A stretch of 64,000 bases of DNA from Escherichia coli. GTDB taxonomy: Bacteria; Pseudomonadota; Gammaproteobacteria; Enterobacterales; Enterobacteriaceae. The DNA is taken from the NCBI RefSeq assembly GCF_024298765.1, contig NZ_CP101210.1. One strand, 5' to 3'. Within the stretch, counting starts at the first letter, position 1; each line of letters starts with the position of its first letter. Both the position numbers and the translations under genes were made by a program. Shown piece after piece: positions 21,115 to 60,649 of this stretch. The notes under the pieces were generated by a model. That model was given only the letters and a program-made list of their open reading frames with translations, was not told the DNA's origin and ran no database searches.

Positions 21115-21807
21115 CTAGTGATAACCACGCGCGGTCATAAAATCCGTAATCGCTTTTTCTGCATCAACCAGCACCTTTTCCAGTGGCTGATTGGCGTCGA
21201 TATCAACCAGTTGTGCACCGCCAAAGGTTAACTGTGGCGTTATGGCAATCTTCCTCGCCAGCGATTCCCGTTTATGGTCGGGTTTACGCGCGCAGGCAAC
21301 TTCAAGGTCAACATTGAGTTTGATGACCAGATCAGGCTTATGGCTCGCCATCCAGTGAAATGCTTTACGTTCCTGGCTTGCCAGCCATGAGACAAACCGG
21401 CCGCCTTCAACGTTAGGTGGGAACACCGTACCATCGTAAGCGCCAGGAATTTGGTCCTGAGGATAACGATCGGTTAAGACAATCAGCCCGCGACGACGAC
21501 AGGCGAGCATATGACGAAAGCGTAACAGTCGGCGGGCGACGAAAGCGGTGATCACCAGGGCCGGAACCGGACCCGGCAATTTTTTTGCCGTTTTCACTTC
21601 ATTTTTTTCAATAGTCTTGTGCAGAGACTTTCCCATCAACGGTAATTTTGTCACTGCACGACCGACATTTCCGGCCTGTTTTCCTAAATGAACTCTTTCG
21701 GCAGCACCATATTTTTCGACAACGGTAATAAGATGTTCACACACCGTTGACTTGCCTGAACCATCGCTACCAATAACGGCAATTAATGGAGGTGTTATTG
21801 ACTGCAT
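21115..21807 (-). CDS. yghT: P-loop NTPase-like protein (paralog 1 of 3)
   Basis: 230 aa; Walker [10 protein letters not shown]; shares DRYPQ and ARKPDH motifs with yghS and yghR. Confidence 0.8.
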
Positions 21808-21980: not shown

Positions 21981-22694
21981 GTGAATCAACGTAATATGTC
22001 AATAATTAATTCCACGCCAGTGCGTGTTATTGCCATTGTAGGATGTGATGGTTCAGGTAAATCGACCCTCACGGCAAGCCTGGTAAATGAACTGGCAGCA
22101 ACAATGCCAACAGAACACATTTATCTCGGGCAATCGTCCGGGCGAATTGGCGAATGGATTTCACAGCTCCCTGTTATTGGCGCACCTTTTGGGCGTTATC
22201 TGCGAAGTAAAGCGGCACATGTGCACGAAAAGCCCTCCACACCACCTGGCAATATTACTGCGCTGGTTATCTATCTGCTTTCCTGCTGGCGGGCGTACAA
22301 GTTTCGCAAAATGTTGTGTAAAAGCCAGCAAGGCTATCTGCTCATCACCGACCGCTACCCGCAGGTTGAAGTGCCGGGTTTTCGCTTTGATGGCCCGCAA
22401 TTGGCAAAAACCACGGGCGGTAACGGTTGGATAAAAATGTTAAGGCAGCGCGAGCTGAAGCTGTACCAATGGATGGCGTCTTATTTGCCCGTATTGTTGA
22501 TTCGTCTTGGCATTGATGAACAAACCGCGTTTGCGCGTAAACCTGACCACCAACTGGCGGCGTTACAGGAAAAAATCGCCGTTACGCCGCAACTGACATT
22601 TAATGGCGCAAAGATCCTTGAACTGGATGGTCGGCAACCCGCCGATGAAATTCTGCAAGCGTCACTACGCGCAATTCACGCCGCGCTTTCCTGA
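21981..22694 (+). CDS. yghS: P-loop NTPase-like protein (paralog 2 of 3)
   Basis: 237 aa from GTG (ATG alternative at 21996); Walker A GCDGSGKST. Confidence 0.8.
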   Translation: MNQRNMSIINSTPVRVIAIVGCDGSGKSTLTASLVNELAATMPTEHIYLGQSSGRIGEWISQLPVIGAPFGRYLRSKAAHVHEKPSTPPGNITALVIYLLSCWRAYKFRKMLCKSQQGYLLITDRYPQVEVPGFRFDGPQLAKTTGGNGWIKMLRQRELKLYQWMASYLPVLLIRLGIDEQTAFARKPDHQLAALQEKIAVTPQLTFNGAKILELDGRQPADEILQASLRAIHAALS

Positions 22695-22725: not shown

Positions 22726-23484
22726 ATGGACGCACTACAAACACAAACTGTTAATAGTACAACCGCGCCGCAGCCCAACTACATTCCGGGGCTGATTGCG
22801 GTGGTCGGGTGTGATGGCACCGGTAAATCCACACTGACCACCGACCTGGTGAAATCGCTGCAACAACACTGGCAAACCGAGCGGCGCTATCTGGGGCTGC
22901 TCTCGGGCGAAGACGGCGACAAAATCAAACGATTGCCGTTGGTTGGCGTCTGGCTCGAACGGCGACTGGCGGCCAAATCCTCGAAAACCCAAAGCATGAA
23001 AACCAAATCTCCAGCGCTATGGGCGGCGGTGATTATGTACTGCTTCTCGCTGCGAAGAATGGCGAATCTACGCAAGGTTCAGCGACTGGCGCAAAGTGGC
23101 GTTCTGGTGGTCAGCGATCGCTTCCCGCAGGCTGAAATTTCGGGCTTTTATTATGACGGACCGGGGATCGGCGTCGAACGTGCGACCGGGAAAATCAGCA
23201 TGTTTCTGGCGCAGCGCGAACGGCGTTTATACCAACAAATGGCGCAATACCGTCCTGAATTAATCATTCGTTTGGGGATTGATATTGATACTGCCATCTC
23301 CCGCAAGCCTGACCATGACTATGCCGAGCTGCAGGACAAAATCGGCGTCATGTCGACGATTGGCTATAACGGCACAAAAATTCTTGAGATTGATTCCAGA
23401 GCGCCCTACAGCGAAGTGCTGGAACAGGCACAGAAGGCGGTTTCTCTGGTTGCCATCGTTTCTGACCGCCGAAGTTTAACTTAA
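22726..23484 (+). CDS. yghR: P-loop NTPase-like protein (paralog 3 of 3)
   Basis: 252 aa; Walker A GCDGTGKST; DRFPQ; SRKPDH. Confidence 0.8.
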   Translation: MDALQTQTVNSTTAPQPNYIPGLIAVVGCDGTGKSTLTTDLVKSLQQHWQTERRYLGLLSGEDGDKIKRLPLVGVWLERRLAAKSSKTQSMKTKSPALWAAVIMYCFSLRRMANLRKVQRLAQSGVLVVSDRFPQAEISGFYYDGPGIGVERATGKISMFLAQRERRLYQQMAQYRPELIIRLGIDIDTAISRKPDHDYAELQDKIGVMSTIGYNGTKILEIDSRAPYSEVLEQAQKAVSLVAIVSDRRSLT

Positions 23485-23529: not shown

Positions 23530-24879
23530 TTGGCGGGTTTTAACATCAAACATTGGTTTGCAGATGGCGCGTTTCGCACCATTATTCGCAATAGCGCCTG
23601 GTTAGGCTCCAGTAATGTCGTGAGCGCTTTGCTGGGTCTGTTGGCGCTCTCGTGTGCCGGTAAAGGGATGACGCCCGCCATGTTTGGCGTACTGGTGATT
23701 GTACAATCGTACGCCAAGTCGATCAGCGATTTTATTAAGTTTCAGACATGGCAGCTGGTGGTTCAGTACGGAACACCAGCATTAACCAACAATAATCCGC
23801 AGCAATTCCGCAATGTCGTCTCATTTTCCTTCTCGCTGGATATCGTCAGCGGCGCGGTGGCGATTGTCGGCGGCATTGCCTTACTCCCTTTTCTTTCCCA
23901 TTCATTAGGTCTGGATGACCAAAGCTTTTGGCTGGCAGCGCTGTATTGCACGCTCATTCCTTCAATGGCTTCCTCCACGCCGACCGGCATTCTGCGTGCG
24001 GTAGATCGCTTCGATCTAATTGCTGTACAGCAAGCGACGAAACCTTTTCTGCGCGCAGCGGGGAGCGTCGTTGCCTGGTATTTTGACTTTGGTTTTGCGG
24101 GTTTTGTTATTGCCTGGTACGCCTCGAATCTTGTTGGCGGCACCATGTACTGGTGGTTTGCCGCACGTGAATTACGCCGCAGAAATATCCATAACGCGTT
24201 CAAATTGAATCTGTTTGAGTCTGCCCGACACATCAAAGGCGCGTGGAGTTTTGTCTGGTCAACCAACATTGCCCATTCCATCTGGTCGGCGCGTAATTCG
24301 TGCAGCACAGTGTTGGTGGGGATCGTGTTAGGACCCGCTGCCGCCGGGTTATTTAAAATCGCCATGACATTCTTCGACGCCGCCGGAACGCCAGCGGGTT
24401 TACTGGGCAAAAGTTTTTACCCAGAGGTGATGCGTTTAGATCCGCGTACCACCAGACCGTGGTTGTTAGGCGTGAAGTCAGGTTTACTGGCGGGCGGAAT
24501 CGGTATTCTGGTGGCGCTCGCGGTGTTGATTGTCGGCAAGCCGCTCATTTCGCTGGTGTTTGGCGTTAAGTATCTCGAAGCGTATGACCTGATTCAGGTG
24601 ATGCTGGGCGCAATTGTGATCTCGATGCTGGGCTTCCCTCAGGAGTCATTGCTATTGATGGCGGGAAAACAGCGCGCTTTTCTCGTGGCGCAAACCATCG
24701 CCTCAATCGGCTACATCGTATTGCTGTTCATGTTCTGTCATCTGTTTGGCGTGCTGGGAGCAGCGTTTGCTTATTTCGGTGGTCAATGTCTGGATGTGGT
24801 GCTTTCGCTAATTCCGACCTTAAAGGCATTTTTTCAGCGCCATTCCTTGCTTTATAACGCAGCCGGAGAGAAATCCTGA
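23530..24879 (+). CDS. yghQ: MOP/Wzx-like multi-pass membrane flippase-family protein (start uncertain)
   Basis: Long hydrophobic ORF; first in-frame ATG at 23668; frame open upstream to TTG at 23530. Confidence 0.65.
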   Translation: MAGFNIKHWFADGAFRTIIRNSAWLGSSNVVSALLGLLALSCAGKGMTPAMFGVLVIVQSYAKSISDFIKFQTWQLVVQYGTPALTNNNPQQFRNVVSFSFSLDIVSGAVAIVGGIALLPFLSHSLGLDDQSFWLAALYCTLIPSMASSTPTGILRAVDRFDLIAVQQATKPFLRAAGSVVAWYFDFGFAGFVIAWYASNLVGGTMYWWFAARELRRRNIHNAFKLNLFESARHIKGAWSFVWSTNIAHSIWSARNSCSTVLVGIVLGPAAAGLFKIAMTFFDAAGTPAGLLGKSFYPEVMRLDPRTTRPWLLGVKSGLLAGGIGILVALAVLIVGKPLISLVFGVKYLEAYDLIQVMLGAIVISMLGFPQESLLLMAGKQRAFLVAQTIASIGYIVLLFMFCHLFGVLGAAFAYFGGQCLDVVLSLIPTLKAFFQRHSLLYNAAGEKS

Positions 24880-25703
24880 TGATGAGAAAATATTTCCCGC
24901 TAGAGGCGAGCGAGCGTCTATTTGTTGCGATTGAAGAAGATGATGTCGTTGATGCACAGGTCAGTTTGCCGCCGACTATCGCACTAAGTTGTACCACCGA
25001 AATCATCCATGATAATTACGCGTTATGCCTGCAATTCTGGCTCAATGGCGTCAATCGCCAGGAGTTACTGCGTTTAATATGCAAACAGGCCAAAGGCGAT
25101 GAGCTGACTGCTGATGAGCGCAAACAATTTAAATACATGCGAGCGCGCTACAAGCACCTGCGTTTTGCGCAACGGCTGTATTTAAAGAAGCATCAGGCCG
25201 GATTTTTATTCGGCAAAACGACCGTTTTTTTGGGGCGTTTTCAGGACGGCTTTCGTAACGGTAAGAAAAATATTGTGTCGTATTACGGCAACCTGTTACG
25301 GGTTTATTTAAGCTCTCCGGTCTGGTCGTTGGTGAACTATTCATTACGCCATAGCCAGTTAGAAAGCGTAAGCGGTTTTATTGCCTATCGGCAAAAGCAA
25401 ATGCATACCCTGAAAGAGATAATTGCCAAACCGCGACTAACCGGCAGGGAATTTCATGATGTGCGAAAAATCATCAGCCAGCAGGTTTCTTATTACGACA
25501 CCCTAAGATCGCTTGATCCTGAAAATAAAGAAGCGTTACAGATTTCCCGCTTCCTCGCCGCCATTAATGGCCTGATGGGGGATAAACACGACGACATGGT
25601 GGCGGATGATATGGAAAACCGCCAGTCGTATGATGCACCGATGGCGCTGGATAGCGATATTCGCCAGCGCTTAGAACTGCTGATTTCGCGTTTTCCGCTA
25701 TAA
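24879..25703 (+). CDS. hypothetical cytoplasmic protein, 274 aa (island gene)
   Basis: ATG overlaps yghQ stop (TGATG); GGAGAG RBS at 24865-24870; no domain recognised. Confidence 0.6.
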   Translation: MMRKYFPLEASERLFVAIEEDDVVDAQVSLPPTIALSCTTEIIHDNYALCLQFWLNGVNRQELLRLICKQAKGDELTADERKQFKYMRARYKHLRFAQRLYLKKHQAGFLFGKTTVFLGRFQDGFRNGKKNIVSYYGNLLRVYLSSPVWSLVNYSLRHSQLESVSGFIAYRQKQMHTLKEIIAKPRLTGREFHDVRKIISQQVSYYDTLRSLDPENKEALQISRFLAAINGLMGDKHDDMVADDMENRQSYDAPMALDSDIRQRLELLISRFPL

Positions 25704-25711
25704 CCGGAGCA

Positions 25712-26275
25712 ATGATGTCATCTCGTTTGATTATTGCGCTGATTATCATGCTCTTAGCCCCGGGTGTGCAGGCACACAATTTCGTCACTGGCAAAACGGT
25801 TACCCCCGTTTATATCCAGGAAGGCGGCGAGCTGCTTCGGAATAGCGACGACGAAATTCACTACCAAAAGTGGAACAGCACCCAATTGGCGGGAAAAGTT
25901 CGCATTATTCAGTATATCGCCGGGCGTAAGTCGGCGAAGAAAAAGAACTCACTGTTAATTAAAGCAGTTGAAGCGGCAAACTTTCCGCAGGATCGTTTTC
26001 AGCCCACCACCATTGTGAACACTGATGATGCCATCTTTGGTACCGGCTATTTTGTCGTTGGCAAAATCGAAAAAAATAAACGCCGCTATCCATGGGCGCA
26101 ATTCGTTATTGACGGCAATGGACAGGGACGCGTTGCCTGGCACTTGCAGGAGCAGAGTTCAACCATTCTGGTGCTGAATAAAACCGGGCAAATTCAGTGG
26201 GCAAAGGACGGCAGCCTGACGCCGGAAGAGGTAGATCATGTCATTGCGCTGGCGCAGAAGCTGATCAATGAATAA
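25712..26275 (+). CDS. YtfJ-family secreted/periplasmic protein paralog
   Basis: 187 aa; signal peptide MMSSRLIIALIIMLLAPGVQA; strong resemblance to E. coli YtfJ as recalled (KVRxxQHIAGR, TTIVNTDDAI, VQWAKDGxLTPEEV). Confidence 0.65.
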   Translation: MMSSRLIIALIIMLLAPGVQAHNFVTGKTVTPVYIQEGGELLRNSDDEIHYQKWNSTQLAGKVRIIQYIAGRKSAKKKNSLLIKAVEAANFPQDRFQPTTIVNTDDAIFGTGYFVVGKIEKNKRRYPWAQFVIDGNGQGRVAWHLQEQSSTILVLNKTGQIQWAKDGSLTPEEVDHVIALAQKLINE

Positions 26276-26304: not shown

Positions 26305-27375
26305 ATGAAGCTGGTTGAACACTACATCATGCGTGGTACGCGCCGTCTGGTGCTGATTATCGTCGGTTTTCTGATCTTTATTTTCGCCAGCTACTCCGCA
26401 CAGCGTTATCTGACCGAAGCGGCAAATGGGACATTAGCTCTTGATGTTGTGCTGGATATCGTTTTCTACAAAGTGCTGATTGCACTGGAGATGTTGTTAC
26501 CTGTTGGACTGTATGTGTCAGTTGGCGTGACGCTAGGGCAGATGTATACCGACTCGGAAATTACCGCTATCTCTGCGGCGGGGGGCAGTCCGGGACGCTT
26601 GTACAAAGCCGTTCTTTATCTGGCGATACCGCTAAGTATTTTTGTCACCCTTCTGTCGATGTATGGTCGTCCGTGGGCTTATGCGCAGATTTATCAACTG
26701 GAGCAACAGTCACAGTCGGAGCTGGATGTTCGCCAGTTGCGGGCAAAGAAATTTAACACTAACGATAACGGACGAATGATCCTTTCGCAGACGGTTGATC
26801 AGGATAATAATCGCCTGACTGATGCGCTGATTTATACTTCTACTGCTAATCGAACCCGCATTTTCCGCGCCCGTTCGGTTGATGTGGTTGACCCATCACC
26901 TGAGAAACCGACCGTTATGTTGCATAACGGGACCGCCTATCTTCTCGATCATCAGGGGCGTGACGACAACGAACAGATCTACCGTAATCTGCAATTACAT
27001 CTGAATCCGCTGGATCAAAGCCCTAACGTCAAACGCAAAGCAAAATCGGTCACGGAGCTGGCGCGCTCCGCCTTTCCTGCCGATCATGCCGAACTGCAAT
27101 GGCGACAAAGCCGTGGCCTGACAGCATTGTTGATGGCGCTGCTGGCCATTTCATTAAGTCGGGTAAAACCGCGGCAAGGGCGATTTTCAACGTTATTGCC
27201 ACTGACGTTGCTGTTTGTTGCCATTTTTTATGGCGGCGACGTCTGCCGTACGCTGGTGGCTAACGGCGCGATTCCCCTCATTCCTGGTTTGTGGTTAGTA
27301 CCCGGACTCATGCTAATGGGCCTGCTGATGTTGGTCGCACGCGACTTCTCTTTGCTGCAGAAATTTTCCCGATGA
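26305..27375 (+). CDS. LptF-like permease (YjgP/YjgQ family) paralog
   Basis: 356 aa; 6-TM pattern with large periplasmic loop; YTDSEIT and KPRQGRF motifs resembling LptF. Confidence 0.7.
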   Translation: MKLVEHYIMRGTRRLVLIIVGFLIFIFASYSAQRYLTEAANGTLALDVVLDIVFYKVLIALEMLLPVGLYVSVGVTLGQMYTDSEITAISAAGGSPGRLYKAVLYLAIPLSIFVTLLSMYGRPWAYAQIYQLEQQSQSELDVRQLRAKKFNTNDNGRMILSQTVDQDNNRLTDALIYTSTANRTRIFRARSVDVVDPSPEKPTVMLHNGTAYLLDHQGRDDNEQIYRNLQLHLNPLDQSPNVKRKAKSVTELARSAFPADHAELQWRQSRGLTALLMALLAISLSRVKPRQGRFSTLLPLTLLFVAIFYGGDVCRTLVANGAIPLIPGLWLVPGLMLMGLLMLVARDFSLLQKFSR

Positions 27376-28451
27376 ATGTTTTCAGTCGCTATTTAATCCG
27401 TCATCTCTTTCTCGGTTTTGCCGCCGCCGCAGGGCTATTGCTGCCGCTTTTTACCACCTTCAACCTGATTAACGAACTGGATGATGTCAGCCCGGGTGGT
27501 TATCGCTGGACTCAGGCGGTGCTGGTGGTGCTGATGACCTTACCGCGCACACTGGTCGAACTTTCGCCGTTTATCGCCTTATTGGGAGGGATTGTCGGCC
27601 TGGGGCAGTTATCGAAAAACAGTGAGCTTACCGCCATTCGCAGCACGGGGTTTTCTATCTTCCGTATTGCACTGGTGGCGCTGGTTGCCGGGATATTGTG
27701 GACTGTTTCATTAGGCGCGATAGATGAGTGGGTGGCGTCGCCATTGCAGCAACAGGCGCTGCAAATCAAATCGACTGCCACTGCGTTGGGGGAGGACGAT
27801 GACATTACCGGCAATATGCTGTGGGCCAGGCGTGGTAATGAATTTGTGACGGTGAAATCGCTGAACGAGCAGGGCCAGCCGGTGGACGTGGAGATATTTC
27901 ATTACCGCGATGATCTCTCGCTCGAATCCTACATTTATGCGCGCAGTGCTACCATTGAAGACGACAAAACGTGGATCCTGCATGGTGTGAATCATAAAAA
28001 ATGGCTGAATGGCAAAGAAACGCAGGAAACATCTGATAATCTTCCCTGGCAATCGGCCTTCACCAGTATGAATCTTGAAGAGTTATCGATGCCGGGAAAT
28101 ACTTTTTCTGTCCGTCAACTTAATCATTACATCCATTATTTGCAGGAAACCGGGCAACCCAGCAGCGAATACCGCCTTGCACTGTGGGAAAAACTGGGAC
28201 AACCCATCTTGACCCTGGCGATGATTTTGCTGGCTGTGCCGTTTACCTTTAGCGCCCCGCGTTCGCCTGGGATGGGTAGCCGTCTCGCTGTAGGCGTCAT
28301 CGTTGGCTTACTCACCTGGATCAGCTATCAAATCATGGTCAATCTGGGATTGTTATTTGCGTTGAGCGCACCTGTTACCGCGCTCGGTTTACCGGTAGCG
28401 TTTGTGCTGGTGGCGTTGAGCCTGGTGTATTGGTATGACAGACAACATTAA
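27372..28451 (+). CDS. LptG-like permease (YjgP/YjgQ family) paralog
   Basis: ATG at 27372 overlaps upstream stop (ATGA); MNVFSRYLIRHLF N-terminus typical of LptF/G family; 359 aa. Confidence 0.7.
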   Translation: MNVFSRYLIRHLFLGFAAAAGLLLPLFTTFNLINELDDVSPGGYRWTQAVLVVLMTLPRTLVELSPFIALLGGIVGLGQLSKNSELTAIRSTGFSIFRIALVALVAGILWTVSLGAIDEWVASPLQQQALQIKSTATALGEDDDITGNMLWARRGNEFVTVKSLNEQGQPVDVEIFHYRDDLSLESYIYARSATIEDDKTWILHGVNHKKWLNGKETQETSDNLPWQSAFTSMNLEELSMPGNTFSVRQLNHYIHYLQETGQPSSEYRLALWEKLGQPILTLAMILLAVPFTFSAPRSPGMGSRLAVGVIVGLLTWISYQIMVNLGLLFALSAPVTALGLPVAFVLVALSLVYWYDRQH

Positions 28452-28485
28452 ACCCGCCGTGGCGCAACACCACAGCGGGCTCACA

Positions 28486-29658
28486 TTACTGCTTCAGAGT
28501 AGCAAATGCCTGAATGATGGCATCGATTTGCTCACGACTGTGGGCAGCGTTTACGCTACAGCGCAGCAGCGTGATGCCTGCAGGCGCGGCAGGTGGCAGG
28601 ATAAGATTCACATAAACGCCCAGCGAAATAAGCTCGCGCCAGATGCGTAAACCTTCCTCTTTCGAACCGATTATTACTGGCACTACCGGGCTAATATGTG
28701 AACTTAACTCATAACCCAGTTTTTGCAGACCGTCATACAGATGGTTGGCGTTATCCATCAGTTTTTGCCGCAGCTCTGGTTGTGTGGAAATGGTTCTTAA
28801 CGACGAGCGCACGGTCGCAATGCAGGACGGAGAAGGAGAGGCGGTAAAAATATACGGGCGGCTGCCGTAGCGCAGCACTTCCATCGCTTCTGAACCCACG
28901 GCAAAACCACCAATGGAAGCCAAACTTTTACTGAAGGTGCCGACGATAATATCCACGTCGTCTTCAACGCCAACGGCTTCAACCAGTCCGCGGCCTGTTG
29001 CGCCTAACACGCCAAACGAATGTGCTTCATCGACAATCAAATAACCACCGAGACGACGTTTGATATCAACAATTTCTGCCAGCGGCGCAACGTCACCGAG
29101 CATACTGTAGATGCCTTCAACGATAATAATCGCCTCTTTCGCCCGTTCACCGAGGCGGACCATGCGCCGTTCCAGATCGTTGACGTCATTATGGCGGAAA
29201 CGAATAATCTCTGCGCCGCCGAGAGAACAGGCGTCATAAATACTGGCGTGGCTGTCGGCATCCAGTAACACCACGGCGTTATGGTCGGCAAGTGCGCTGA
29301 TGACACCTAAATTAGCGGTATAACCGGTTGAAAAAACGATAGCGGTAGGGCGATTGAAAAACTCGGCAATCTCTTTCTCTAACGCCAGATGCGGCGCATA
29401 ACTGCCGTTTGCCATACGAGAACCGGTGGTGCCAGTGCCTTGGGCCGCTAACGCTGCCTGACCTTCGCGGATAGCATCATGATTAAAGGTTAAACCGAGA
29501 TAATTATTGGTCCCGGCCAGAATCACTTTTTTATTGCCGATCCGGCCTTCGGTGGCGGAATACACTTCATCAATACAGGTGCCAAATGGTGTTAACCCGT
29601 TGTCACTAAATTGCAGGCGCTCGCCAGCAAGGCGCGCATATTTATCGTATAGCCCCAT
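28486..29658 (-). CDS. alpha-oxoamine synthase, serine palmitoyltransferase-like (PLP-dependent)
   Basis: 390 aa; DEAHSFG and GTFSKSLAS motifs (Lys244 codon at 28927-28929) typical of SPT/KBL/AONS family. Confidence 0.75.
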   Translation of the reverse strand: MGLYDKYARLAGERLQFSDNGLTPFGTCIDEVYSATEGRIGNKKVILAGTNNYLGLTFNHDAIREGQAALAAQGTGTTGSRMANGSYAPHLALEKEIAEFFNRPTAIVFSTGYTANLGVISALADHNAVVLLDADSHASIYDACSLGGAEIIRFRHNDVNDLERRMVRLGERAKEAIIIVEGIYSMLGDVAPLAEIVDIKRRLGGYLIVDEAHSFGVLGATGRGLVEAVGVEDDVDIIVGTFSKSLASIGGFAVGSEAMEVLRYGSRPYIFTASPSPSCIATVRSSLRTISTQPELRQKLMDNANHLYDGLQKLGYELSSHISPVVPVIIGSKEEGLRIWRELISLGVYVNLILPPAAPAGITLLRCSVNAAHSREQIDAIIQAFATLKQ

Positions 29659-29906
29659 TATTTATTCTCCAGCCATGGAAGTAGAGTTTCCATTAATTGC
29701 GCAGGGGTTTTGACATCCAGCAGAATATTAATAGGAATGGAAATATCGAATCTGTCTTCCAGCATCATTAAGAGATCCATCACTTTGATCGACTCCAGGC
29801 CAAGATCGTTGACGAGATCGCTGTCGGGCTTAATTTCCACACCGTTTTCGACCAAATCCTGTAAACAGGAAAGGATGTAATCCATTACTATTTCACGATT
29901 TACCAT
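29658..29906 (-). CDS. dedicated acyl carrier protein
   Basis: 82 aa; DLGLESIKVMDLLMMLEDRF helix-2 region with candidate phosphopantetheine Ser; stop overlaps AOS start (TAATG). Confidence 0.65.
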   Translation of the reverse strand: MVNREIVMDYILSCLQDLVENGVEIKPDSDLVNDLGLESIKVMDLLMMLEDRFDISIPINILLDVKTPAQLMETLLPWLENK

Positions 29907-29937: not shown

Positions 29938-30852
29938 TCAAAATAGCCCGTTGCGTAATGCGTGTTCCAGGCTAATCCCGGGAAACCAATTAATATCTTC
30001 AGAAATACGGTTATTATTTGCCGACCAGTCGGCGTGGGTTAATTCACGAATTTTCGAGCGGGTCAGCATAGGTTCTTTACCTGCCAGGCGACTCAACGCA
30101 GTACTGATATCCGCAAGGCAGGTGAGTAGCGGCAGAGGAATGCCAACCATCCGCACAGAACCACAACGGGCTTCGGCGGCAAGCTGTCGTACGCGTTGCC
30201 AGTCATAGCCGCCAGCGACGCCATCGCATAATTCATAGGTTTGCGTCTGTACAGTTTCGGCGTTTAACCACTGACCCACTGCTTGCGCAAAATCGGTGAC
30301 GTGCAGGAAAGAGAGTTGTGTATCTGGCGCACCAAGTCGTGGCAGCAGGCCGCGCAGCATCCAGTCAAACAGCGGTTTTAACTCTTTATCGCCGGGACCA
30401 TACACGGCTGTCGGGCGAAAAATGCCCAGCGTAATTTCGTCAGCCATTGCGATCAGTCGTTGTTCGGCGACGTGTTTGGAATTTGCGTACCAGGAGAGTT
30501 CGGGATGGCGCGCCGCCAGCGAAGAGATAAACAGAAAACGTTGGCAAAAGCCGCTCTCTTTTGCCGCTTGCATCAGGCGCAGGCTGCCGTCAACGTTACA
30601 GCGGGTAAAAATCTCTTCTTTGTGTCCGCGCACTTGTCCGGCGCAATGGACCACCGCGCTGGCTCCGGCAACCAGTTCGCTAAGCGAATGTGTATCTTCC
30701 AGCGAACCGCGCACCCAGATGAGATTATCATTGACGTGAGCGCGGGCAGTACGCGTCAATGTGCGAACGTGAAAGCCGCGGGCGAGCAGGTTATCGATAA
30801 TATATTTACCGATAAACCCGGTAGCGCCCGTCACCGCGACAGTTTGATTCAT
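29938..30852 (-). CDS. NAD(P)-dependent epimerase/dehydratase-fold reductase
   Basis: ATG at 30852 (MNQTVAVTGATGFIGKYI), 304 aa; YANSK catalytic dyad; track ORF has an N-terminal extension overlapping the upstream gene. Confidence 0.7.
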   Translation of the reverse strand: MNQTVAVTGATGFIGKYIIDNLLARGFHVRTLTRTARAHVNDNLIWVRGSLEDTHSLSELVAGASAVVHCAGQVRGHKEEIFTRCNVDGSLRLMQAAKESGFCQRFLFISSLAARHPELSWYANSKHVAEQRLIAMADEITLGIFRPTAVYGPGDKELKPLFDWMLRGLLPRLGAPDTQLSFLHVTDFAQAVGQWLNAETVQTQTYELCDGVAGGYDWQRVRQLAAEARCGSVRMVGIPLPLLTCLADISTALSRLAGKEPMLTRSKIRELTHADWSANNNRISEDINWFPGISLEHALRNGLF

Positions 30853-32573
30853 GCCAGGGATTCCTGCACATGAAGGCTTGCAGCATAAGCCTTCTGATAA
30901 CGTTTTTTCGCTTCCGCACGGGCAGGCTTGCCGGAGGACGTTCGGGGAATACTGTGGGGCGGCAACAGATCGATAGCCGCGGTCACGCCAAATTCGCTTT
31001 GGATCCGTGCTACCAGTGCGTGGATAAGCTGCCCACGACGTTCTTCGTCGCTGATCCGACACTGGATCTGCAAAATGATTTTTTCCTGGGCGGTAACAAA
31101 AGCAATCGCATCGCCAGAATGAATTTCCGGTTCCTGTTCCGCAATGTATTCAATATCCTGCGGCCAGATATTACGGCCACGAATAATAATCAGATCTTTA
31201 ATGCGTCCGGTGACATACAGATAACCGTCCAGCAGATAACCGAGGTCGCCGGTGTCTAACCAGCCCGTCGCGGCAATCTCGTCTTGCGAAACCTGGTCGC
31301 CAAAGTACCCGCTCATCAGGCTGGGGCCGGAGATGCAAATATGGCCTACCACACGTTCCGCGACAGGTATATCTGCTTCATTGCGGATTTCAATGCCATG
31401 TTCCGGCAACGCTTTACCGCAGTTGACGAAAGTCGATACGGCGCGTGTTTCAGCACCCGGCGCGACGGCTTTACCCTGGTATTCGAGGATGTCGCGATCC
31501 ACTTCGTTAACCACAACCCCGCAGGCTTCATCAGAGAAGCTGACAGCCAGCGCATTTTCTGCCAGTCCGTAGCACGGCATGAAAGTTTTATCGTCAAAGT
31601 TAACCTGACGAAAACATTCAGCGAATTGATGGAGTTGTTCTGCGGAGATCGGTTCTGCTCCAATACCAGCGACGCGCCAGCAGGAAAGATCCAGTTCAGC
31701 GAGATCTTTTTCATTCACGCGGCGCTGGCACAATTCATAGCCAAACGGCGGTGCAACGGAAACGGTGCCGCGATTTTTACTGATCAATTTAAGCCATTGC
31801 AGAGGACGCATGGCAAAATCCTGAGTGCGCAAATAATCTACTGAAAGCTGCGTGGCGACGGGGGTCAGGAGAAAGCCGACCAGTCCCATATCATGGTAGA
31901 AAGGCAGCCAGGAGACGCAGCGGTCGCCAGGGCGTAATTTAATGCCATCGTGGCTTATAGCACGTAGATTAGCCATCACTTCGTGATGGGTGATAATGAC
32001 GCCACGGGGAAAACGGGTGCTGCCGGAGGTGTACTGGAGGTAGGCGATATCGTTCGGAACTGGACGCTGGAGCGCAACATCGGCTTCCGGTAATGCCTTA
32101 AACCAGGCGTGGCTTAAAACATGTAATTCGGGGTTGTTGTTATGCGTCGCGGCATTGACCAGCGGTAACCACTCATCACCAGTGATAATGGCTGCGGGCT
32201 GGCAACTTGCCAGTAAACCCTGCAGTTTGGCGCTCCAGGAATCCCGCTGACCGACGCCCATTGGAATCGCCAACGGGACGGCGACTAAGCCGGCACACTG
32301 GCAGGAAAAAAAAGCCTCTACAAACCCGCTACTCGTTTCGGCAATCAGCGCCACGCGATCGCCTTTTTTCAGGTTCAGCGATAACAACCGCTTCGCACCA
32401 GCTTCGGCACGCGCTTTTAACGTCTGATATTCCAGTTGATCTTCAAGTTGGCAACGTCTGTCATAAAAATTCATTCCGGCGCTACTCAGAGCGGCGTAGT
32501 CCAAAGCATCAACCAGCGTTGGAAAATCGGCATAGCGCATAGGTAGGGAATGCGTAAAGATTTTATTAGACAT
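30849..32573 (-). CDS. fatty acyl-AMP ligase / acyl-ACP synthetase-like adenylating enzyme
   Basis: About 574 aa from ATG at 32573; YTSGSTRFPRG core motif; GRIKDLIIIRGRNIWPQDIE; stop overlaps next start. Confidence 0.7.
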   Translation of the reverse strand: MSNKIFTHSLPMRYADFPTLVDALDYAALSSAGMNFYDRRCQLEDQLEYQTLKARAEAGAKRLLSLNLKKGDRVALIAETSSGFVEAFFSCQCAGLVAVPLAIPMGVGQRDSWSAKLQGLLASCQPAAIITGDEWLPLVNAATHNNNPELHVLSHAWFKALPEADVALQRPVPNDIAYLQYTSGSTRFPRGVIITHHEVMANLRAISHDGIKLRPGDRCVSWLPFYHDMGLVGFLLTPVATQLSVDYLRTQDFAMRPLQWLKLISKNRGTVSVAPPFGYELCQRRVNEKDLAELDLSCWRVAGIGAEPISAEQLHQFAECFRQVNFDDKTFMPCYGLAENALAVSFSDEACGVVVNEVDRDILEYQGKAVAPGAETRAVSTFVNCGKALPEHGIEIRNEADIPVAERVVGHICISGPSLMSGYFGDQVSQDEIAATGWLDTGDLGYLLDGYLYVTGRIKDLIIIRGRNIWPQDIEYIAEQEPEIHSGDAIAFVTAQEKIILQIQCRISDEERRGQLIHALVARIQSEFGVTAAIDLLPPHSIPRTSSGKPARAEAKKRYQKAYAASLHVQESLA

Positions 32574-32943: not shown

Positions 32944-34086
32944 ATGGAATGCGATCTGCTGATGATTAAAATTGAAAAAGTAATTAATAAAAATGACCTT
33001 AAGGCATTTATCGCTTTTCCGTCATCACTTTATCCCGACGATCCAAACTGGATACCCCCTTTATTCATTGAACGCAACGAGCATTTGTCTGCGAAAAATC
33101 CGGGGACGGACCATATCATCTGGCAGGCGTGGGTGGCAAAAAAAGCGGGGCAGATAGTTGGGCGTATTACCGCGCAAATCGATACCTTGCACCGCGAGCG
33201 TTACGGCAAAGATACCGGTCATTTCGGCATGATTGACGCCATTGATGATCCGCAGGTTTTTGCCGCGTTGTTTGGCGCAGCGGAAGCGTGGTTGAAGTCA
33301 CAAGGTGCAAGTAAGATCAGCGGTCCTTTCAGCCTGAATATCAATCAGGAAAGCGGATTACTGATTGAAGGTTTCGATACACCACCCAGTGCGATGATGC
33401 CACACGGTAAACCGTGGTATGCCGCGCATATTGAACAACTGGGTTATCACAAAGGCATTGATTTACTGGCGTGGTGGATGCAGCGAACCGATCTCACTTT
33501 CTCTCCGGCGCTAAAAAAACTGATGGATCAGGTGCGCAAAAAAGTGACCATTCGCTGCATCAATCGCCAGCGGTTTGCCGAAGAGATACAGATCCTGCGT
33601 GAGATTTTCAATTCTGGCTGGCAGCACAACTGGGGATTTGTGCCGTTTACCGAACATGAATTCGCGACCATGGGCGATCAACTTAAATATCTGGTGCCGG
33701 ACGATATGATCTACATCGCTGAGATTGATTCTGCACCCTGCGCGTTTATTGTTGGCTTGCCGAACATCAACGAGGCGATTGCCGATCTGAACGGATCGCT
33801 CTTTCCCTTCGGCTGGGCAAAATTGCTGTGGCGTTTGAAAGTCAGCGGTGTGCGAACTGCGCGAGTGCCGCTGATGGGCGTGCGGGACGAGTATCAGTTC
33901 AGCCGCATCGGCCCGGTAATTGCGCTGTTATTGATTGAAGCCTTACGCGATCCGTTTGCCCGTCGGAAGATCGATGCGCTGGAGATGTCATGGATCCTCG
34001 AAACCAATACAGGCATGAATAACATGCTGGAACGCATTGGGGCGGAGCCGTACAAGCGTTACCGATTGTATGAAAAGCAGATTTGA
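32944..34086 (+). CDS. yghO: GNAT-fold acyltransferase-like protein (uninterrupted reading frame)
   Basis: 380-aa ORF from ATG 32944 (alternative ATG 32962); divergent from lipid operon. Confidence 0.65.
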   Translation: MECDLLMIKIEKVINKNDLKAFIAFPSSLYPDDPNWIPPLFIERNEHLSAKNPGTDHIIWQAWVAKKAGQIVGRITAQIDTLHRERYGKDTGHFGMIDAIDDPQVFAALFGAAEAWLKSQGASKISGPFSLNINQESGLLIEGFDTPPSAMMPHGKPWYAAHIEQLGYHKGIDLLAWWMQRTDLTFSPALKKLMDQVRKKVTIRCINRQRFAEEIQILREIFNSGWQHNWGFVPFTEHEFATMGDQLKYLVPDDMIYIAEIDSAPCAFIVGLPNINEAIADLNGSLFPFGWAKLLWRLKVSGVRTARVPLMGVRDEYQFSRIGPVIALLLIEALRDPFARRKIDALEMSWILETNTGMNNMLERIGAEPYKRYRLYEKQI

Positions 34087-56281: not shown

Positions 56282-56845
56282 GTGCCTGAACGCGGATTCA
56301 CTCTTCTGGAAATCATGCTGGTGATTTTCCTTATCGGCCTTGCCAGTGCGGGCGTGGTACAGACGTTTGCGACCGATTCTGAATCGCCCGCGAAAAAAGC
56401 GGCGCAGGATTTTCTGACTCGCTTTGCGCAGTTTAAAGACAGGGCAGTGATCGAAGGGCAGACACTCGGTGTACTAATCGACCCGCCGGGATACCAGTTT
56501 ATGCAGCGTCGTCAGGGGCAGTGGTTGCCCGTTTCTGCGACCCGGTTATCGGCACAGGTTACGGTGCCGAAACAGGTGCAGATGCTGTTACAACCCGGAA
56601 GTGATATCTGGCAGAAGGAATATGCGCTGGAGCTGCAGCGTCGCCGCCTGACGCTGCACGATATTGAACTGGAGCTGCAAAAAGAGGCGAAAAAGAAGAC
56701 ACCGCAGATCCGTTTTTCGCCTTTTGAACCCGCCACGCCGTTTACGCTGCGCTTCTACTCGGCGGCGCAAAACGCATGTTGGGCGGTAAAGCTGGCGCAC
56801 AATGGCGTGTTATCCCTCAATCAATGTGATGAGAGGATGCCATGA
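56282..56845 (+). CDS. gspH: type II secretion minor pseudopilin H
   Basis: GTG start; MPERGFTLLEIMLV prepilin signature. Confidence 0.8.
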   Translation: MPERGFTLLEIMLVIFLIGLASAGVVQTFATDSESPAKKAAQDFLTRFAQFKDRAVIEGQTLGVLIDPPGYQFMQRRQGQWLPVSATRLSAQVTVPKQVQMLLQPGSDIWQKEYALELQRRRLTLHDIELELQKEAKKKTPQIRFSPFEPATPFTLRFYSAAQNACWAVKLAHNGVLSLNQCDERMP

Positions 56846-57213
56846 AGCGCGGATTTACCTTGCTGGAAGTGATGCTCGCGCTGGCGATTTTTGCGTTGGC
56901 CGCCATGGCGGTGTTACAGATTGCCAGCGGTGCGCTGAGTAATCAGCAGATTCTTGAGGAGAAAACGGTAGCGGGCTGGGTAGCTGAAAACCAGACCGCG
57001 CTGCTTTACCTGATGACCCGTGAACAACGAGCGGTCAGGCACCAGGGCGAGAGTGATATGGCAGGAAGCCGCTGGTACTGGCGAACCACACCGCTGAGTA
57101 CAGGCAACGCGCTGCTCCAGGCGGTGGATATTGAAGTCAGCCTTCACGAAGACTTTTCGCCGGTGATTCAGTCACGACGCGCCTGGTTTAGCGCCGTGGG
57201 AGGCCAACAGTGA
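56842..57213 (+). CDS. gspI: type II secretion minor pseudopilin I
   Basis: MKRGFTLLEVMLA; overlaps gspH stop. Confidence 0.85.
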   Translation: MKRGFTLLEVMLALAIFALAAMAVLQIASGALSNQQILEEKTVAGWVAENQTALLYLMTREQRAVRHQGESDMAGSRWYWRTTPLSTGNALLQAVDIEVSLHEDFSPVIQSRRAWFSAVGGQQ

Positions 57214-57815
57214 GAAGGACTCGCGCTGGTTTCACGTTACTGGAAATACTGGTGGCGATAGCCATTTTTGCCTCGCTGGCACTGATGGCGCAGCAGGTGA
57301 CTAACGGCGTCGCACGCGTGAATAGCGCCGTCGCCGATCACGATCAAAAACTAAACCTCATGCAGCAAACGATGAGTTTTCTGACCCACGATCTGACCCA
57401 AATAATGCCGCGTCCGGTAAGAAGCGATCAGGGCCAGCGTGAACCAGCGTTACTGGCTGGCCCTGGCGTGCTGGCGTCTGAGAGTGGAGGAATGCGTTTT
57501 GTGCGCGGCGGTGTGGTTAACCCGTTGATGCGTCTGCCACGCAGCAATCTGCTCACCGTCGGTTACCGCATTCATGACGGCTATCTCGAACGGTTAGCCT
57601 GGCCGCTGACCGACGCAGCAGGCAGCGTGAAGCCGACAATGCAAAAGTTGATTCCGGCGGATTCGCTCCGCTTGCAGTTCTACGACGGCACGCGCTGGCA
57701 GGAGAGCTGGTCGTCAGTACAGGCGATCCCTGTGGCAGTGCGCATGACCCTGCATTCGCCGCAATGGGGCGAGATTGAACGCATCTGGTTGTTACGCGGG
57801 CCGCAATTATCATGA
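57210..57815 (+). CDS. gspJ: type II secretion minor pseudopilin J
   Basis: GTG start; RAGFTLLEILVA prepilin signature. Confidence 0.8.
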   Translation: MRRTRAGFTLLEILVAIAIFASLALMAQQVTNGVARVNSAVADHDQKLNLMQQTMSFLTHDLTQIMPRPVRSDQGQREPALLAGPGVLASESGGMRFVRGGVVNPLMRLPRSNLLTVGYRIHDGYLERLAWPLTDAAGSVKPTMQKLIPADSLRLQFYDGTRWQESWSSVQAIPVAVRMTLHSPQWGEIERIWLLRGPQLS

Positions 57816-58789
57816 TCACCTCACCACCAAAACGCGGAATGGCACTGGTCGTGGTGCTGGTATTGCTGGCGGTTATGATGCTGGTGACCATCACGCTTTC
57901 CGGGCGAATGCAGCAACAACTTGGGCGAACGCGCAGCCAGCAGGAGTACCAGCAGGCGCTGTGGTACAGCGCCAGTGCGGAAAGCCTGGCGTTGAGCGCA
58001 CTCAGTCTGAGCCTGAAAAATGAAAAGCGCGTGCATCTGGCGCAGCCGTGGGCTTCCGGCCCTCGTTTTTTCCCACTGCCGCAGGGGCAAATTGCCGTCA
58101 CCCTGCGTGACGCCCAGGCCTGCTTTAACCTGAATGCCCTCGCTCAGCCGACAACGGCGTCGCGTCCTATCGCGGTACAACAACTGATTGCCCTGATCTC
58201 GCGCCTGGATGTGCCTGCTTATCGGGCCGAACTGATAGCCGAAAGCCTGTGGGAGTTTATTGACGAGGACCGCAGCGTGCAGACGCGTCTGGGGCGTGAA
58301 GACAGCGAGTATCTCGCCCGCTCGGTGCCGTTCTACGCCGCCAATCAACCGCTGGCCGATATCAGTGAGATGCGCGTGGTACAGGGAATGGACGCCGGAC
58401 TTTATCAAAAACTGAAACCGCTGGTCTGTGCGCTGCCGATGACCCGCCAGCAAATCAACATCAATACCTTAGACGTCACGCAAAGTGTGATTCTTGAGGC
58501 GCTGTTTGACCCGTGGTTAAGCCCTGTTCAGGCGCGGGCGTTATTACAACAACGTCCGGCGAAGGGCTGGGAAGATGTCGATCAGTTTCTTGCTCAGCCG
58601 CTACTTGCAGACGTCGATGAGCGTACTAAAAAACAGCTAAAAACCATCCTGAGCGTGGACAGCAATTACTTCTGGCTGCGTTCAGATATCACCGTGAATG
58701 AGATTGAACTGACGATGAATTCGTTAATTGTCCGCATGGGCCCACAACACTTTTCTGTTCTCTGGCATCAGACAGGAGAAAGTGAGTGA
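57812..58789 (+). CDS. gspK: type II secretion minor pseudopilin K
   Basis: 325 aa; N-terminal TM helix; overlaps gspJ stop. Confidence 0.85.
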   Translation: MITSPPKRGMALVVVLVLLAVMMLVTITLSGRMQQQLGRTRSQQEYQQALWYSASAESLALSALSLSLKNEKRVHLAQPWASGPRFFPLPQGQIAVTLRDAQACFNLNALAQPTTASRPIAVQQLIALISRLDVPAYRAELIAESLWEFIDEDRSVQTRLGREDSEYLARSVPFYAANQPLADISEMRVVQGMDAGLYQKLKPLVCALPMTRQQININTLDVTQSVILEALFDPWLSPVQARALLQQRPAKGWEDVDQFLAQPLLADVDERTKKQLKTILSVDSNYFWLRSDITVNEIELTMNSLIVRMGPQHFSVLWHQTGESE

Positions 58790-59964
58790 GTTCCATGCTT
58801 GAGATTTTTTTCCCGCTTTGCGCCGCTGATCCCATCCGTTGGCAGCGCCATACACCCGACGTGGAGCACGGTATCTGGCCTGACGTTGCTGACGAACGTC
58901 TCCAGCAATGGCTGCAAACTGATGCGATTCGACTCTACATTCCCGGCGAATGGATCAGCGTCTGGCAGGTTGAACTGCCTGATGTGCCCCGCAAGCAGAT
59001 ACCGACGATTCTGCCCGCCTTGCTGGAAGAAGAGCTGAACCAGGATATCGATGAACTGCATTTCGCCCCGTTGAAAATCGACCAGCAACTGGCAACCGTA
59101 GCTGTGATTCACCAGCAGCATATGCGCAACATTGCGCAGTGGTTGCAGGCAAACGGCATCGCCCGCGCTACCGTCGCGCCGGACTGGATGTCCATTCCTT
59201 GTGGGTTTATGGCTGGCGATGCGCAACGGGTTATCTGCCGTATCGATGAATGCCGGGGATGGAGCGCCGGGCGGGCGCTGGCTCCGGTCATGTTCCGCGC
59301 ACAGCTCAATGAGCAGAATTTACCGATTTCACTAACTGTGGTCGGCATTGCACCGGAAGAACTGTCTGCATGGGCTGGTGCGGACGCCGAACGCCTGACC
59401 GTTACGGCTCTGCCCGCCATTACCACTTATGGCGAACCGGAAGGGAACCTGCTAACAGGGCCGTGGCAGCCTCGTGTTAGCTACCGAAAACAGTGGGCGC
59501 GCTGGCGGGTGATGATTCTGCCGATATTGCTGATTCTGGTTGCGCTGGTAGTGGAACGGGGCGTGACGTTATGGAGCGTCAGCGAACAGGTGGCGCAAAG
59601 CCGCACCCAGGCGGAGAAACAGTTCTTAACGCTATTCCCGGAGCAGAAGCGGATTGTGAATTTACGCTCGCAGGTGACGATGGCGCTGAAAAAATATCGC
59701 CCACAGGCTGATGATACCGATCTGCTTGCCGAGTTGTCTGCGATCGCCAGTACCCTGAAATCCGCATCACTTTCCGACATTGAGATGCGTGGTTTCACCT
59801 TTGATCAAAAACGCCAGACGCTTCACCTCCAGCTACGGGCTGCGAACTTTGCCAGCTTCGACAAACTGCGTAGCGCACTGGCGGTAGATTATGTTGTGCA
59901 ACAGGACGCGTTACAGAAAGAGGGTGATGCGGTTTCCGGCGGCGTAACGTTGCGGAGGAAATAA
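58786..59964 (+). CDS. gspL: type II secretion system protein L
   Basis: 392 aa (GTG 58786 or ATG 58795); single TM near residue 250. Confidence 0.8.
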   Translation: MSSMLEIFFPLCAADPIRWQRHTPDVEHGIWPDVADERLQQWLQTDAIRLYIPGEWISVWQVELPDVPRKQIPTILPALLEEELNQDIDELHFAPLKIDQQLATVAVIHQQHMRNIAQWLQANGIARATVAPDWMSIPCGFMAGDAQRVICRIDECRGWSAGRALAPVMFRAQLNEQNLPISLTVVGIAPEELSAWAGADAERLTVTALPAITTYGEPEGNLLTGPWQPRVSYRKQWARWRVMILPILLILVALVVERGVTLWSVSEQVAQSRTQAEKQFLTLFPEQKRIVNLRSQVTMALKKYRPQADDTDLLAELSAIASTLKSASLSDIEMRGFTFDQKRQTLHLQLRAANFASFDKLRSALAVDYVVQQDALQKEGDAVSGGVTLRRK

Positions 59965-59965
59965 C

Positions 59966-60502
59966 ATGTTACGCGATAAATTTATTCACTATTTTCAGCA
60001 ATGGCGTGAACGCCAGTTAAGCCGTGGCGAACACTGGCTGACACAACACCTGGCGGGGCGTTCGCCGCGTGAAAAGGGCATGTTACTGGCAGCGGCGGTG
60101 TTTCTGTTTAGCGCCGGATATTACGTCCTCATCTGGCAGCCTTTGAGCGAACGGATTGAGCAACAGGAGACGATGTTGCAACAGATGGTGGCGATGAACG
60201 CGCGACTGAAGAGCGCCGCGCCGGATATTATTGCGGCGCGAAAATCCGCCACAACAACGCCTGCACAGGTATCGCGGGTCATCAGCGATAGTGCTTCTGC
60301 GCACTCAGTGGTTATCAAGCGGATAGCCGAGCGCGGGGAGAATATTCAGGTCTGGATAGATCCGGTGGTGTTTAATGACCTGCTGAACTGGTTAAAAGCA
60401 CTGGATGAAAAGTATGCGCTGCGGGTGACACAAATTGATGTCAGCGCAGGTGAGAAGCCTGGAATGGTGAATGTGCAGCGGCTGGAATTTGGACGGGGAT
60501 AA
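59966..60502 (+). CDS. gspM: type II secretion system protein M
   Basis: 178 aa; N-terminal TM; last gene of operon. Confidence 0.8.
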   Translation: MLRDKFIHYFQQWRERQLSRGEHWLTQHLAGRSPREKGMLLAAAVFLFSAGYYVLIWQPLSERIEQQETMLQQMVAMNARLKSAAPDIIAARKSATTTPAQVSRVISDSASAHSVVIKRIAERGENIQVWIDPVVFNDLLNWLKALDEKYALRVTQIDVSAGEKPGMVNVQRLEFGRG

Positions 60503-60645: not shown

Positions 60646-60649
60646 TTAG

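Follow-up and report, generated by a model that had tools for sequence, protein, structure and literature searches.

A second LptF/LptG permease pair in the sphingolipid gene cluster of Escherichia coli

Why would an Escherichia coli chromosome encode a second pair of LptF/LptG-type permeases with no ATPase beside it? The question is raised by two genes, here called lptF2 and lptG2, in a 64,000-nucleotide stretch of E. coli DNA (contig NZ_CP101210.1), referred to below as the window. The original prediction, made from the letters of this DNA, was that the pair may extract a locus-specific lipid from the inner membrane. The two genes are genuine and intact: they encode a second set of LptF/LptG lipid-extractor permeases, located in the E. 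coli sphingolipid cluster. Their products are probably the permease halves of a second Lpt-type ATP-binding cassette (ABC) lipid extractor, dedicated to the ceramide-based lipid of the surrounding cluster and docking on the housekeeping ATPase LptB. This hypothesis is an already published model, developed for Caulobacter (PMC11324152; bioRxiv 10.64898/2026.04.12.717747). The two genes are as follows.

lptF2, 26305-27375, plus strand: LptF-type permease of 356 amino acids with six transmembrane helices
lptG2, 27372-28451, plus strand: LptG-type permease of 359 amino acids, counted from its ATG

The open reading frame (ORF) coordinates bear out the predicted overlap of the two genes at 27372. 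The ATG of lptG2 (27372-27374) overlaps the TGA of lptF2 (27373-27375) to form an ATGA junction (27372-27375), an arrangement that suggests translational coupling and is kept in all orthologous loci compared. A longer form of the second gene, starting with GTG at 27291, is also in the ORF list.

Both proteins belong to the LptF/LptG permease family (PF03739), each to its own subfamily and above curated cut-offs. LptF2 reaches 319.8 bits with the NCBIfam LptF model TIGR04407 (cut-off 230) and LptG2 310.1 bits with its counterpart for LptG, TIGR04408 (cut-off 240); cross-model scores of 68.9 and 88.1 bits are far below these values. Over their full length the proteins also align with all LptF and LptG chains of known structure in the PDB (phmmer). 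For example, residues 3-351 of LptG2 align to E. coli LptG (6mhu_G, E 3.8e-41). The resemblance to LptF/LptG that had been noticed in the sequence is therefore confirmed, at 28.5% identity between LptF2 and K-12 LptF and 27.7% between LptG2 and K-12 LptG.

The fold of LptF2 was examined with an AlphaFold2 (AF2) model built from a 96-sequence alignment. The model has a mean predicted local distance difference test score (pLDDT) of 93.8 and a template modelling (TM) score of 0.83 to the LptF chain of Pseudomonas aeruginosa (9dok_F). It contains helices at residues 2-40, 46-82, 96-138, 258-284, 297-319 and 328-355 and a beta-jellyroll or beta-sandwich at residues 150-232, which is the architecture of six transmembrane helices plus a jellyroll expected of this family. 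The periplasmic beta-jellyroll, a feature singled out for comparison when the pair was first described, is thus present in LptF2; it is intact, and also matches LptA. A short coupling helix spans approximately residues 85-91 and includes Glu85 (nucleotides 26557-26559). The coupling-helix glutamate of LptG2 is also residue 85.

When 1.84 billion representatives were searched exhaustively, 150 matches to LptF2 were obtained, all above 134 bits. E. coli's own LptF scores 93.7 bits against LptF2, below every one of these matches. A neighbour-joining tree was constructed from the 127 full-length matches and four locus-derived LptF2 sequences, with K-12 LptF as the outgroup; it has no bootstrap support and is read only together with gene-context checks. 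The tree separates a basal set with arginine at the position of LptF R212 from one large nested clade without this arginine, the F2 clade, which includes E. coli LptF2. In the profile alignment R212 lies opposite Ala211 of LptF2 (nucleotides 26935-26937) with the highest posterior probability, and across the F2 clade the equivalent residue is A, L, V, I, S or G.

The two sides of the tree have different gene neighborhoods. Six lineages were looked at on the non-Arg side (L017/L018 at 55% identity, L019, L021, L024, L020 and L025); two other matches, P0127 and P0129, lie on contigs too short to show their context. Four of them carry the sphingolipid genes aasR-cerR-acpR-spt, the last encoding serine palmitoyltransferase (SPT), and a gene similar to yghO within 10 kb. 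The other two share accessory genes for a metallophosphatase, an Asp/Arg hydroxylase, a CDP-alcohol phosphatidyltransferase and a sulfotransferase. No pepA gene was found near the window pair or near the six other F2 loci examined. On the Arg side, both representatives with readable DNA (L026 and L027) have a divergent pepA upstream, as in K-12. In L026, holC and valS are present too, so that its neighborhood matches that of the housekeeping pair in E. coli. The window pair departs from the housekeeping genes: it has no pepA context, it has no Arg212 and it is not universal. LptF position 212 and pepA linkage together appear to separate housekeeping from F2-type pairs. The spt linkage of the non-Arg side agrees with a recent preprint, according to which many alpha- and gammaproteobacterial sphingolipid loci contain lptF2 and lptG2 (bioRxiv 10.64898/2026.04.12.717747).

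In one of the six lineages, L025, there is no spt within 10 kb of the F2-type lptFG pair. Divergently upstream of this pair is an ORF of 110 amino acids (L025 9478-9810) with a weak match to LptD_N (OstA-like, LptA/LptC-type). Some F2G2 loci may carry a jellyroll partner of their own, like Caulobacter LptC2.

The pair is accessory, as was originally proposed. It is found in 4131 of 5426 complete E. coli genomes (76%), in 4105 of them at a coverage of at least 80%. K-12 and about 24% of the complete genomes lack it, and its loss from K-12 is without consequence. Housekeeping lptFG is found in 5425 of the 5426 genomes, with or without the second pair. In K-12 (locus L014 4044-9824), an IS5 element (IS5LO) lies between yghO and a truncated yghQ, and the sequence from the 3' part of yghQ through aasR is gone. 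This interval carries hyp274, ytfJ2, lptF2, lptG2, spt, acpR, cerR and aasR in addition to the end of yghQ. K-12 lost its cluster through an IS5-associated deletion, and the K-12 orphans yghO, truncated yghQ, yghR, yghS and yghT are remnants of a sphingolipid cluster.

Where the pair is retained, it is under strong purifying selection. Ratios of nonsynonymous to synonymous substitution rates (dN/dS; Nei-Gojobori, against relatives in three genera) are 0.06-0.09 for lptF2 and about 0.05 for lptG2, similar to those of the biosynthetic genes. Synteny of all 13 cluster genes extends to E. whittamii, other Escherichia lineages and Pseudocitrobacter. The spt module of Mangrovibacter has switched sides but is still adjacent, and no yghO homologue was found within the 21 kb retrieved. 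Orthologues with 65-76% identity are found in Citrobacter, Hafnia, Shimwellia, Sodalis, Serratia, Erwinia and Raoultella. The main protein cluster of 356-amino-acid LptF2 sequences has 5440 members, and truncated alleles, such as fragments of 238-243 amino acids in Shigella boydii and others, are occasional. Decay into pseudogenes in related genomes, which would have spoken against a functional pair, is contradicted by copies at 80% coverage or more in 4105 genomes and by dN/dS values of 0.05-0.09. One additional match, a contig of 241 bp at a coverage of 0.9 in a Falsirhodobacter assembly (NZ_JAQMHV010000051.1), is 99% identical to residues 227-305 of E. coli LptF2 and almost certainly reflects contamination of the assembly with E. 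coli DNA.

How might such permeases be powered? A six-frame scan of the whole window found no Walker A motif with an ABC signature after it, and P-loops are confined to yghT, yghS, yghR and gspE. The Prokaryotic Genome Annotation Pipeline (PGAP) annotation of the identical region in strain 104 likewise lists no ABC ATPase. The observation that no LptB-like ATPase lies nearby therefore extends to all 64 kb. However, this pair is not unusual in lacking a neighboring lptB, as the housekeeping lptFG genes of E. coli are themselves not linked to it. In K-12, lptF-lptG (4486218-4488400) lies 1.14 Mb from lptB (3343944-3344669). The lptB gene is found once in 5425 of the 5426 complete genomes and is at least 99% identical in 5394.

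The residues that would contact this single LptB are conserved. All 127 of the LptF-type representatives aligned, and every LptF2 examined, have a glutamate matching coupling-helix residue E84 of LptF, and the glutamate matching E88 of LptG is invariant in every LptG2 orthologue examined. This conservation fits docking on housekeeping LptB, as judged from the alignments. The suggested borrowing of a housekeeping ATPase is what a 2026 preprint demonstrated for the Caulobacter homologues, and it fits the invariant coupling-helix glutamates of the E. coli pair.

Candidates for missing Lpt components within the cluster were rejected. YghR, YghS and YghT are dTMP-kinase-like P-loop proteins without an ABC signature and were rejected as the missing ATPase. 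BLASTP searches with K-12 LptA, LptB and LptC against all cluster proteins returned nothing. An LptC-, LptA- or LptB-like protein under another name was also dismissed, since YtfJ2 models, at low confidence, as thioredoxin-like rather than as a jellyroll and hyp274 matches no family.

The window is part of the E. coli chromosome and is 100% identical to strain 104 and others. The permease genes are located between pitB-yghT and glcC, in the following setting.

yghT, 21115-21807, minus strand: third paralogous P-loop kinase-like protein, divergent from yghS
yghS, 21981-22694, plus strand: dTMP-kinase-like P-loop protein, first gene of the operon
yghR, 22726-23484, plus strand: dTMP-kinase-like P-loop protein, second gene of the operon
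yghQ, 23530-24879, plus strand: flippase of the MOP family (weak NCBIfam match; K-12 annotation)
hyp274, 24879-25703, plus strand: conserved protein of 274 amino acids; its start overlaps the yghQ stop
ytfJ2, 25712-26275, plus strand: periplasmic YtfJ-family protein (TIGR01626 at 212.5 bits), directly upstream of lptF2
hairpin, 28449-28483, no strand assigned: GC-rich, in the gap between lptG2 and spt, 16 pairs in a terminator scan
spt, 28486-29658, minus strand: serine palmitoyltransferase (NF047599 equivalog at 596 bits, cut-off 500)
acpR, 29658-29906, minus strand: specialised acyl carrier protein (family matches)
cerR/epi, 29938-30852, minus strand: NAD-dependent reductase, presumed 3-keto reductase (matches to short-chain dehydrogenase/reductase and epimerase families; PGAP coordinates)
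aasR, 30849-32573, minus strand: fatty acyl-AMP ligase that loads AcpR (NF006624 at 861 bits)
yghO, 32944-34086, plus strand: homologue of bacterial ceramide synthase (aca/bCerS)

The original prediction placed the pair between a YtfJ-like gene and a lipid operon. These neighbors are correct, but the pair is not a stand-alone unit. Gene order and spacing indicate that lptF2 and lptG2 are the last two genes of a seven-gene plus-strand operon, yghS-yghR-yghQ-hyp274-ytfJ2-lptF2-lptG2, which begins at 21981 and has intergenic gaps of -4 to 45 nucleotides. This operon converges with aasR-cerR-acpR-spt, beyond which yghO follows on the plus strand. The convergent lptG2 and spt genes are separated by 34 nucleotides. 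The hairpin located here folds at -15.9 kcal/mol (z -2.25) with a weak T-tail, and is likely to be a bidirectional terminator shared by both operons. A promoter scan was uninformative, as sigma-70-like sites were no commoner than in shuffled sequence.

Padilla-Gomez et al. 2022 (PMC9386255) studied AasR (ECD_02851), AcpR and Spt (ECD_02854) of BL21(DE3) biochemically, and these proteins are enzymatically active. The authors assigned epi (ECD_02852) and aca (yghO, ECD_02850) as the remaining two dihydroceramide genes. Because these BL21 orthologues are the characterised sphingolipid genes, the locus is the known E. coli sphingolipid cluster. YghO homologues in other spt loci are 47-64% identical. 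The longest ORF of the reductase (29938-31062, GTG start, 374 amino acids) would overlap aasR by approximately 210 nucleotides. Its family matches begin only at residue 73, and the ATG chosen by PGAP at 30852 (304 amino acids) overlaps the aasR stop by four nucleotides; the shorter form is likely to be the gene.

The functions of the remaining cluster proteins are less well defined. YghR, YghS and YghT are 33-44% identical to one another, and their matches to dTMP kinase are weak and far below the cut-off. Two homologues (38-43% identity) are found in the metagenomic spt locus L017 (57-1707). These proteins may be head-group kinases; they are not ABC ATPases. YghQ is a candidate flippase for the cluster lipid. 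The hyp274 protein matches nothing in Pfam or NCBIfam and lacks both a signal peptide and a transmembrane segment. It is syntenic in all Enterobacterales loci compared and has a dN/dS of about 0.07. YtfJ2 has a signal peptide, no cysteine and, in the ortholog alignment, an invariant basic motif, AGRKSAKKKNS. Its low-confidence model (pLDDT 63) matches ResA/CcmG-type thioredoxin folds, so that YtfJ2 may be a redox-dead thioredoxin fold that binds an anionic ligand. Farther away (44000-64000), the window contains sslE, pppA and a complete gsp operon for a beta-type type II secretion system; after these come a prophage-like remnant's toxin-antitoxin genes, ParDE and CbtA/CbeA. All of this is unrelated to the permease pair.

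A pathway for the cluster lipid can be proposed from these components. AasR, AcpR and Spt would make 3-oxosphinganine, which CerR and YghO/bCerS would turn into ceramide. YghR, YghS, YghT, hyp274 and possibly YtfJ2 would modify or handle the head group, and flipping to the periplasmic leaflet would be the task of YghQ. A heterodimer of LptF2 and LptG2 could then dock through its coupling helices on a dimer of the single housekeeping LptB. ATP hydrolysis would pull the lipid from the inner membrane into the LptF2-LptG2 beta-jellyroll, and from there the lipid would probably feed the shared LptA-LptDE bridge to the outer membrane. The sequence analysis shows the family, fold, intactness and selection of the pair, its spt linkage, the lack of a local ATPase and the conserved docking glutamates. 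The substrate, the partnership with LptB and the path onward to the outer membrane are suggested by experiments in Caulobacter together with gene linkage. Extraction of a locus-specific lipid, as first proposed, finds support in the spt-cluster linkage, the fold and the coexistence with housekeeping lptFG, to the extent that sequence comparison can provide it.

The closest known counterpart is found in Caulobacter crescentus. Olea-Ozuna et al. 2024 (PMC11324152) named CC_1168, CC_1156 and CC_1155 LptC2, LptF2 and LptG2, and proposed that phosphosphingolipids reach the outer membrane by means of these proteins and the flippase CC_1166. Uchendu, Isom and Klein 2026 (bioRxiv 10.64898/2026.04.12.717747) found that the three Caulobacter genes can be deleted only if spt or cpgB is deleted as well. 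This synthetic lethality means that their loss is tolerated only when the anionic sphingolipid is not made. In the same study LptF2 and LptG2 co-purify, and both also co-purify with the sole LptB. The locus of E. coli UTI89 is drawn beside the Caulobacter and Sphingomonas loci in Fig. 2B of this preprint.

The E. coli pair shares several features with Caulobacter LptF2/LptG2 (CCNA_01214/CCNA_01213 = CC_1156/CC_1155). In both organisms the second pair resides inside an spt/acpR/cerR/aasR/bCerS locus with a putative Wzx/MOP-type flippase alongside, housekeeping LptFG coexists with it, and there is no dedicated lptB. In the published model, an LptB2-F2G2 complex exports the sphingolipid of the locus. 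Homology of the two pairs is asserted only by Fig. 2B of the preprint. Unlike Caulobacter, E. coli lacks LptC2 and the CpgABC head-group genes and has YghR, YghS, YghT, hyp274 and YtfJ2. Because its head-group genes differ from CpgABC, the exported lipid or its head group is probably different as well.

Related pairs in gammaproteobacterial sphingolipid clusters (metagenomic L017, L019, L021 and L024, and L020 from Methylomarinovum) belong to the same non-Arg212 clade with 30-55% identity, and also exist as overlapping or adjacent genes with aasR-cerR-acpR-spt and bCerS neighbors. However, these loci use an MsbA-like ABC exporter in place of the MOP flippase of E. coli. It is a fused protein encoded at L017 1682-3406, L019 434-2128 and L021 13532-15301. 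Their head-group genes also differ from those of E. coli and encode a DAGK_cat kinase, a CDP-alcohol phosphatidyltransferase, a sulfotransferase, an Asp/Arg hydroxylase and a metallophosphatase. The flipping step seems to be interchangeable among sphingolipid clusters, while the LptF2G2 step seems to be constant.

Compared with the housekeeping LptB2FGC system of E. coli (LptF b4261, LptG b4262), the pair has the same families, the same six-helix plus jellyroll design, the same overlapping gene arrangement, the same coupling-helix glutamates and the same separation from lptB. It differs in sequence (approximately 28% identity), in context (an spt cluster rather than pepA-holC) and in distribution (76% of genomes, lost in K-12). 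LptF2 has Ala at R212 and Leu at Y230 of LptF, and LptG2 has N, D, D and L at K34, K40, K41 and R133 of LptG.

Several considerations weigh against assigning the pair to sphingolipid export with LptB. The function of the E. coli pair is argued from gene linkage and from Caulobacter. The Caulobacter support comes from a preprint and consists of deletion genetics and a pull-down rather than biochemical lipid transport (bioRxiv 10.64898/2026.04.12.717747). The count of lptB genes derives from a search for near-identical DNA, so a divergent second LptB-like ATPase may exist elsewhere in locus-positive genomes. Changes in substrate-contacting residues do not help either. In E. coli LptFG, the phosphates or core of lipopolysaccharide (LPS) contact LptG K34, K40, K41, K62, R133 and R136 and LptF R33, K317 and K322, and LptG K34E is lethal (Tang et al. 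2019, PMC6744409). The corresponding residues are N, D, D, R, L and K in LptG2 and R, R and N in LptF2. The changes at K34, K40, K41 and R133 had to be rejected as evidence for a different substrate, since the pepA-linked LptG of L026 and the LptG of P. aeruginosa also lack these residues. Finally, empty-vector BL21 extracts served as the control lane in SPT assays (PMC9386255), and the native BL21 cluster may be silent in laboratory growth, a point suggested only by the design of that assay.

The same control, which may mean that the BL21 cluster is unexpressed, could be taken to indicate that the locus is a decaying or unexpressed remnant without function in present E. coli, as could its absence from K-12 and about a quarter of complete genomes and the existence of truncated variants. 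This is scarcely plausible for genes whose dN/dS is 0.05-0.09 against three genera, which are present at 80% coverage or more in 4105 genomes and in a 356-amino-acid protein cluster of 5440 members, and whose ATGA overlap and entire operon are conserved. A pseudogene reading was rejected on the same grounds of low dN/dS, conserved operon and wide presence, truncated alleles being occasional. It also seems very unlikely that the pair serves LPS as a second extractor, either redundant or needed only under certain conditions, for example for a modified lipid A or core variant instead of a sphingolipid. Both proteins do pass the NCBIfam LptF and LptG equivalog cut-offs, PGAP calls them LPS export permeases, and some basic cavity residues are kept (LptF R33 and, as Arg, K317; LptG K62 as Arg and R136 as Lys/Arg). 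However, redundancy is at odds with the retention of lptFG in 5425 of 5426 genomes regardless of the second pair, identity to LptF/LptG is only 28%, and the F2 clade is spt-linked across distant lineages and never pepA-linked in the loci examined. Moreover, the Caulobacter paralogues become dispensable once sphingolipid synthesis is abolished.

Two other alternatives accept lipid extraction but alter one of its partners. The energy might be supplied by something other than LptB, either YghR, YghS and YghT or an ABC ATPase from another part of the accessory genome. Indeed, the three conserved P-loop proteins are encoded in the operon of the pair or adjacent to it, and two homologues occur in another spt locus. 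Nevertheless, this arrangement is improbable, as these proteins resemble dTMP or nucleoside kinases with no ABC signature, F2G2 loci of other lineages do without YghRST-like genes, the glutamate that contacts the LptB groove is invariant, and LptB is pulled down by Caulobacter LptF2/G2. Alternatively, the extracted lipid might be handed to a locus-specific periplasmic acceptor such as YtfJ2 and not to the Lpt bridge. The position of ytfJ2 directly upstream of lptF2, its conservation with lptF2 in Enterobacterales and the lack of an LptC, LptA or LptD paralogue in the locus would be compatible with such a role. We give this route little credence: the low-confidence YtfJ2 model is a thioredoxin-like alpha/beta protein instead of a beta-jellyroll that could carry lipid, the F2G2 loci examined outside the enterobacteria have no YtfJ-like genes, and the jellyroll of LptF2 is intact and LptA-like. 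Sphingolipid extraction by LptF2-LptG2 with housekeeping LptB thus remains the preferred explanation.

The residue at LptF position 212 raises a further possibility. It lies at the LptC interface, and no suppressors other than R212G, R212S and R212C are known to permit E. coli to live without LptC; they allow a bridge of six proteins with direct contact between LptA and LptF (PMC9972910). A natural residue other than arginine at this LptC-bypass site throughout the F2 clade may be new, and is the sole new detail of this analysis. It is conceivable, although rather doubtful, that E. coli LptF2G2 is a naturally LptC-independent extractor whose jellyroll plugs straight into LptA, forming a six-protein bridge that competes with LptFGC for LptB and LptA-LptDE. 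The idea rests on one aligned position. It is prompted by the non-Arg residue, by the restriction of LptC2 to Caulobacter (bioRxiv 10.64898/2026.04.12.717747) and by the lack of an LptC- or LptA-like protein in the E. coli cluster. If it is true, E. coli would be a ready-made system for two lipid classes on one trans-envelope bridge.

The route by which bacterial sphingolipids reach the outer membrane was open until recently, and a model of LptF2/G2 with a shared LptB has now been put forward for Caulobacter. To this known model the present analysis makes the small additions of an Arg212 marker, a pepA linkage and a caveat about annotation. The PGAP label 'LPS export ABC transporter permease LptF/LptG', which is based on TIGR04407 and TIGR04408 and is attached to such genes in thousands of genomes, probably over-transfers function; the two kinds of pair can be told apart simply by LptF position 212 and pepA linkage. 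Approximately three quarters of E. coli genomes, including BL21 (PMC9386255) and UTI89 (Fig. 2B of the preprint), carry the module intact and under selection. The model can therefore be tested in E. coli, the organism for which every Lpt tool, structure and inhibitor exists.

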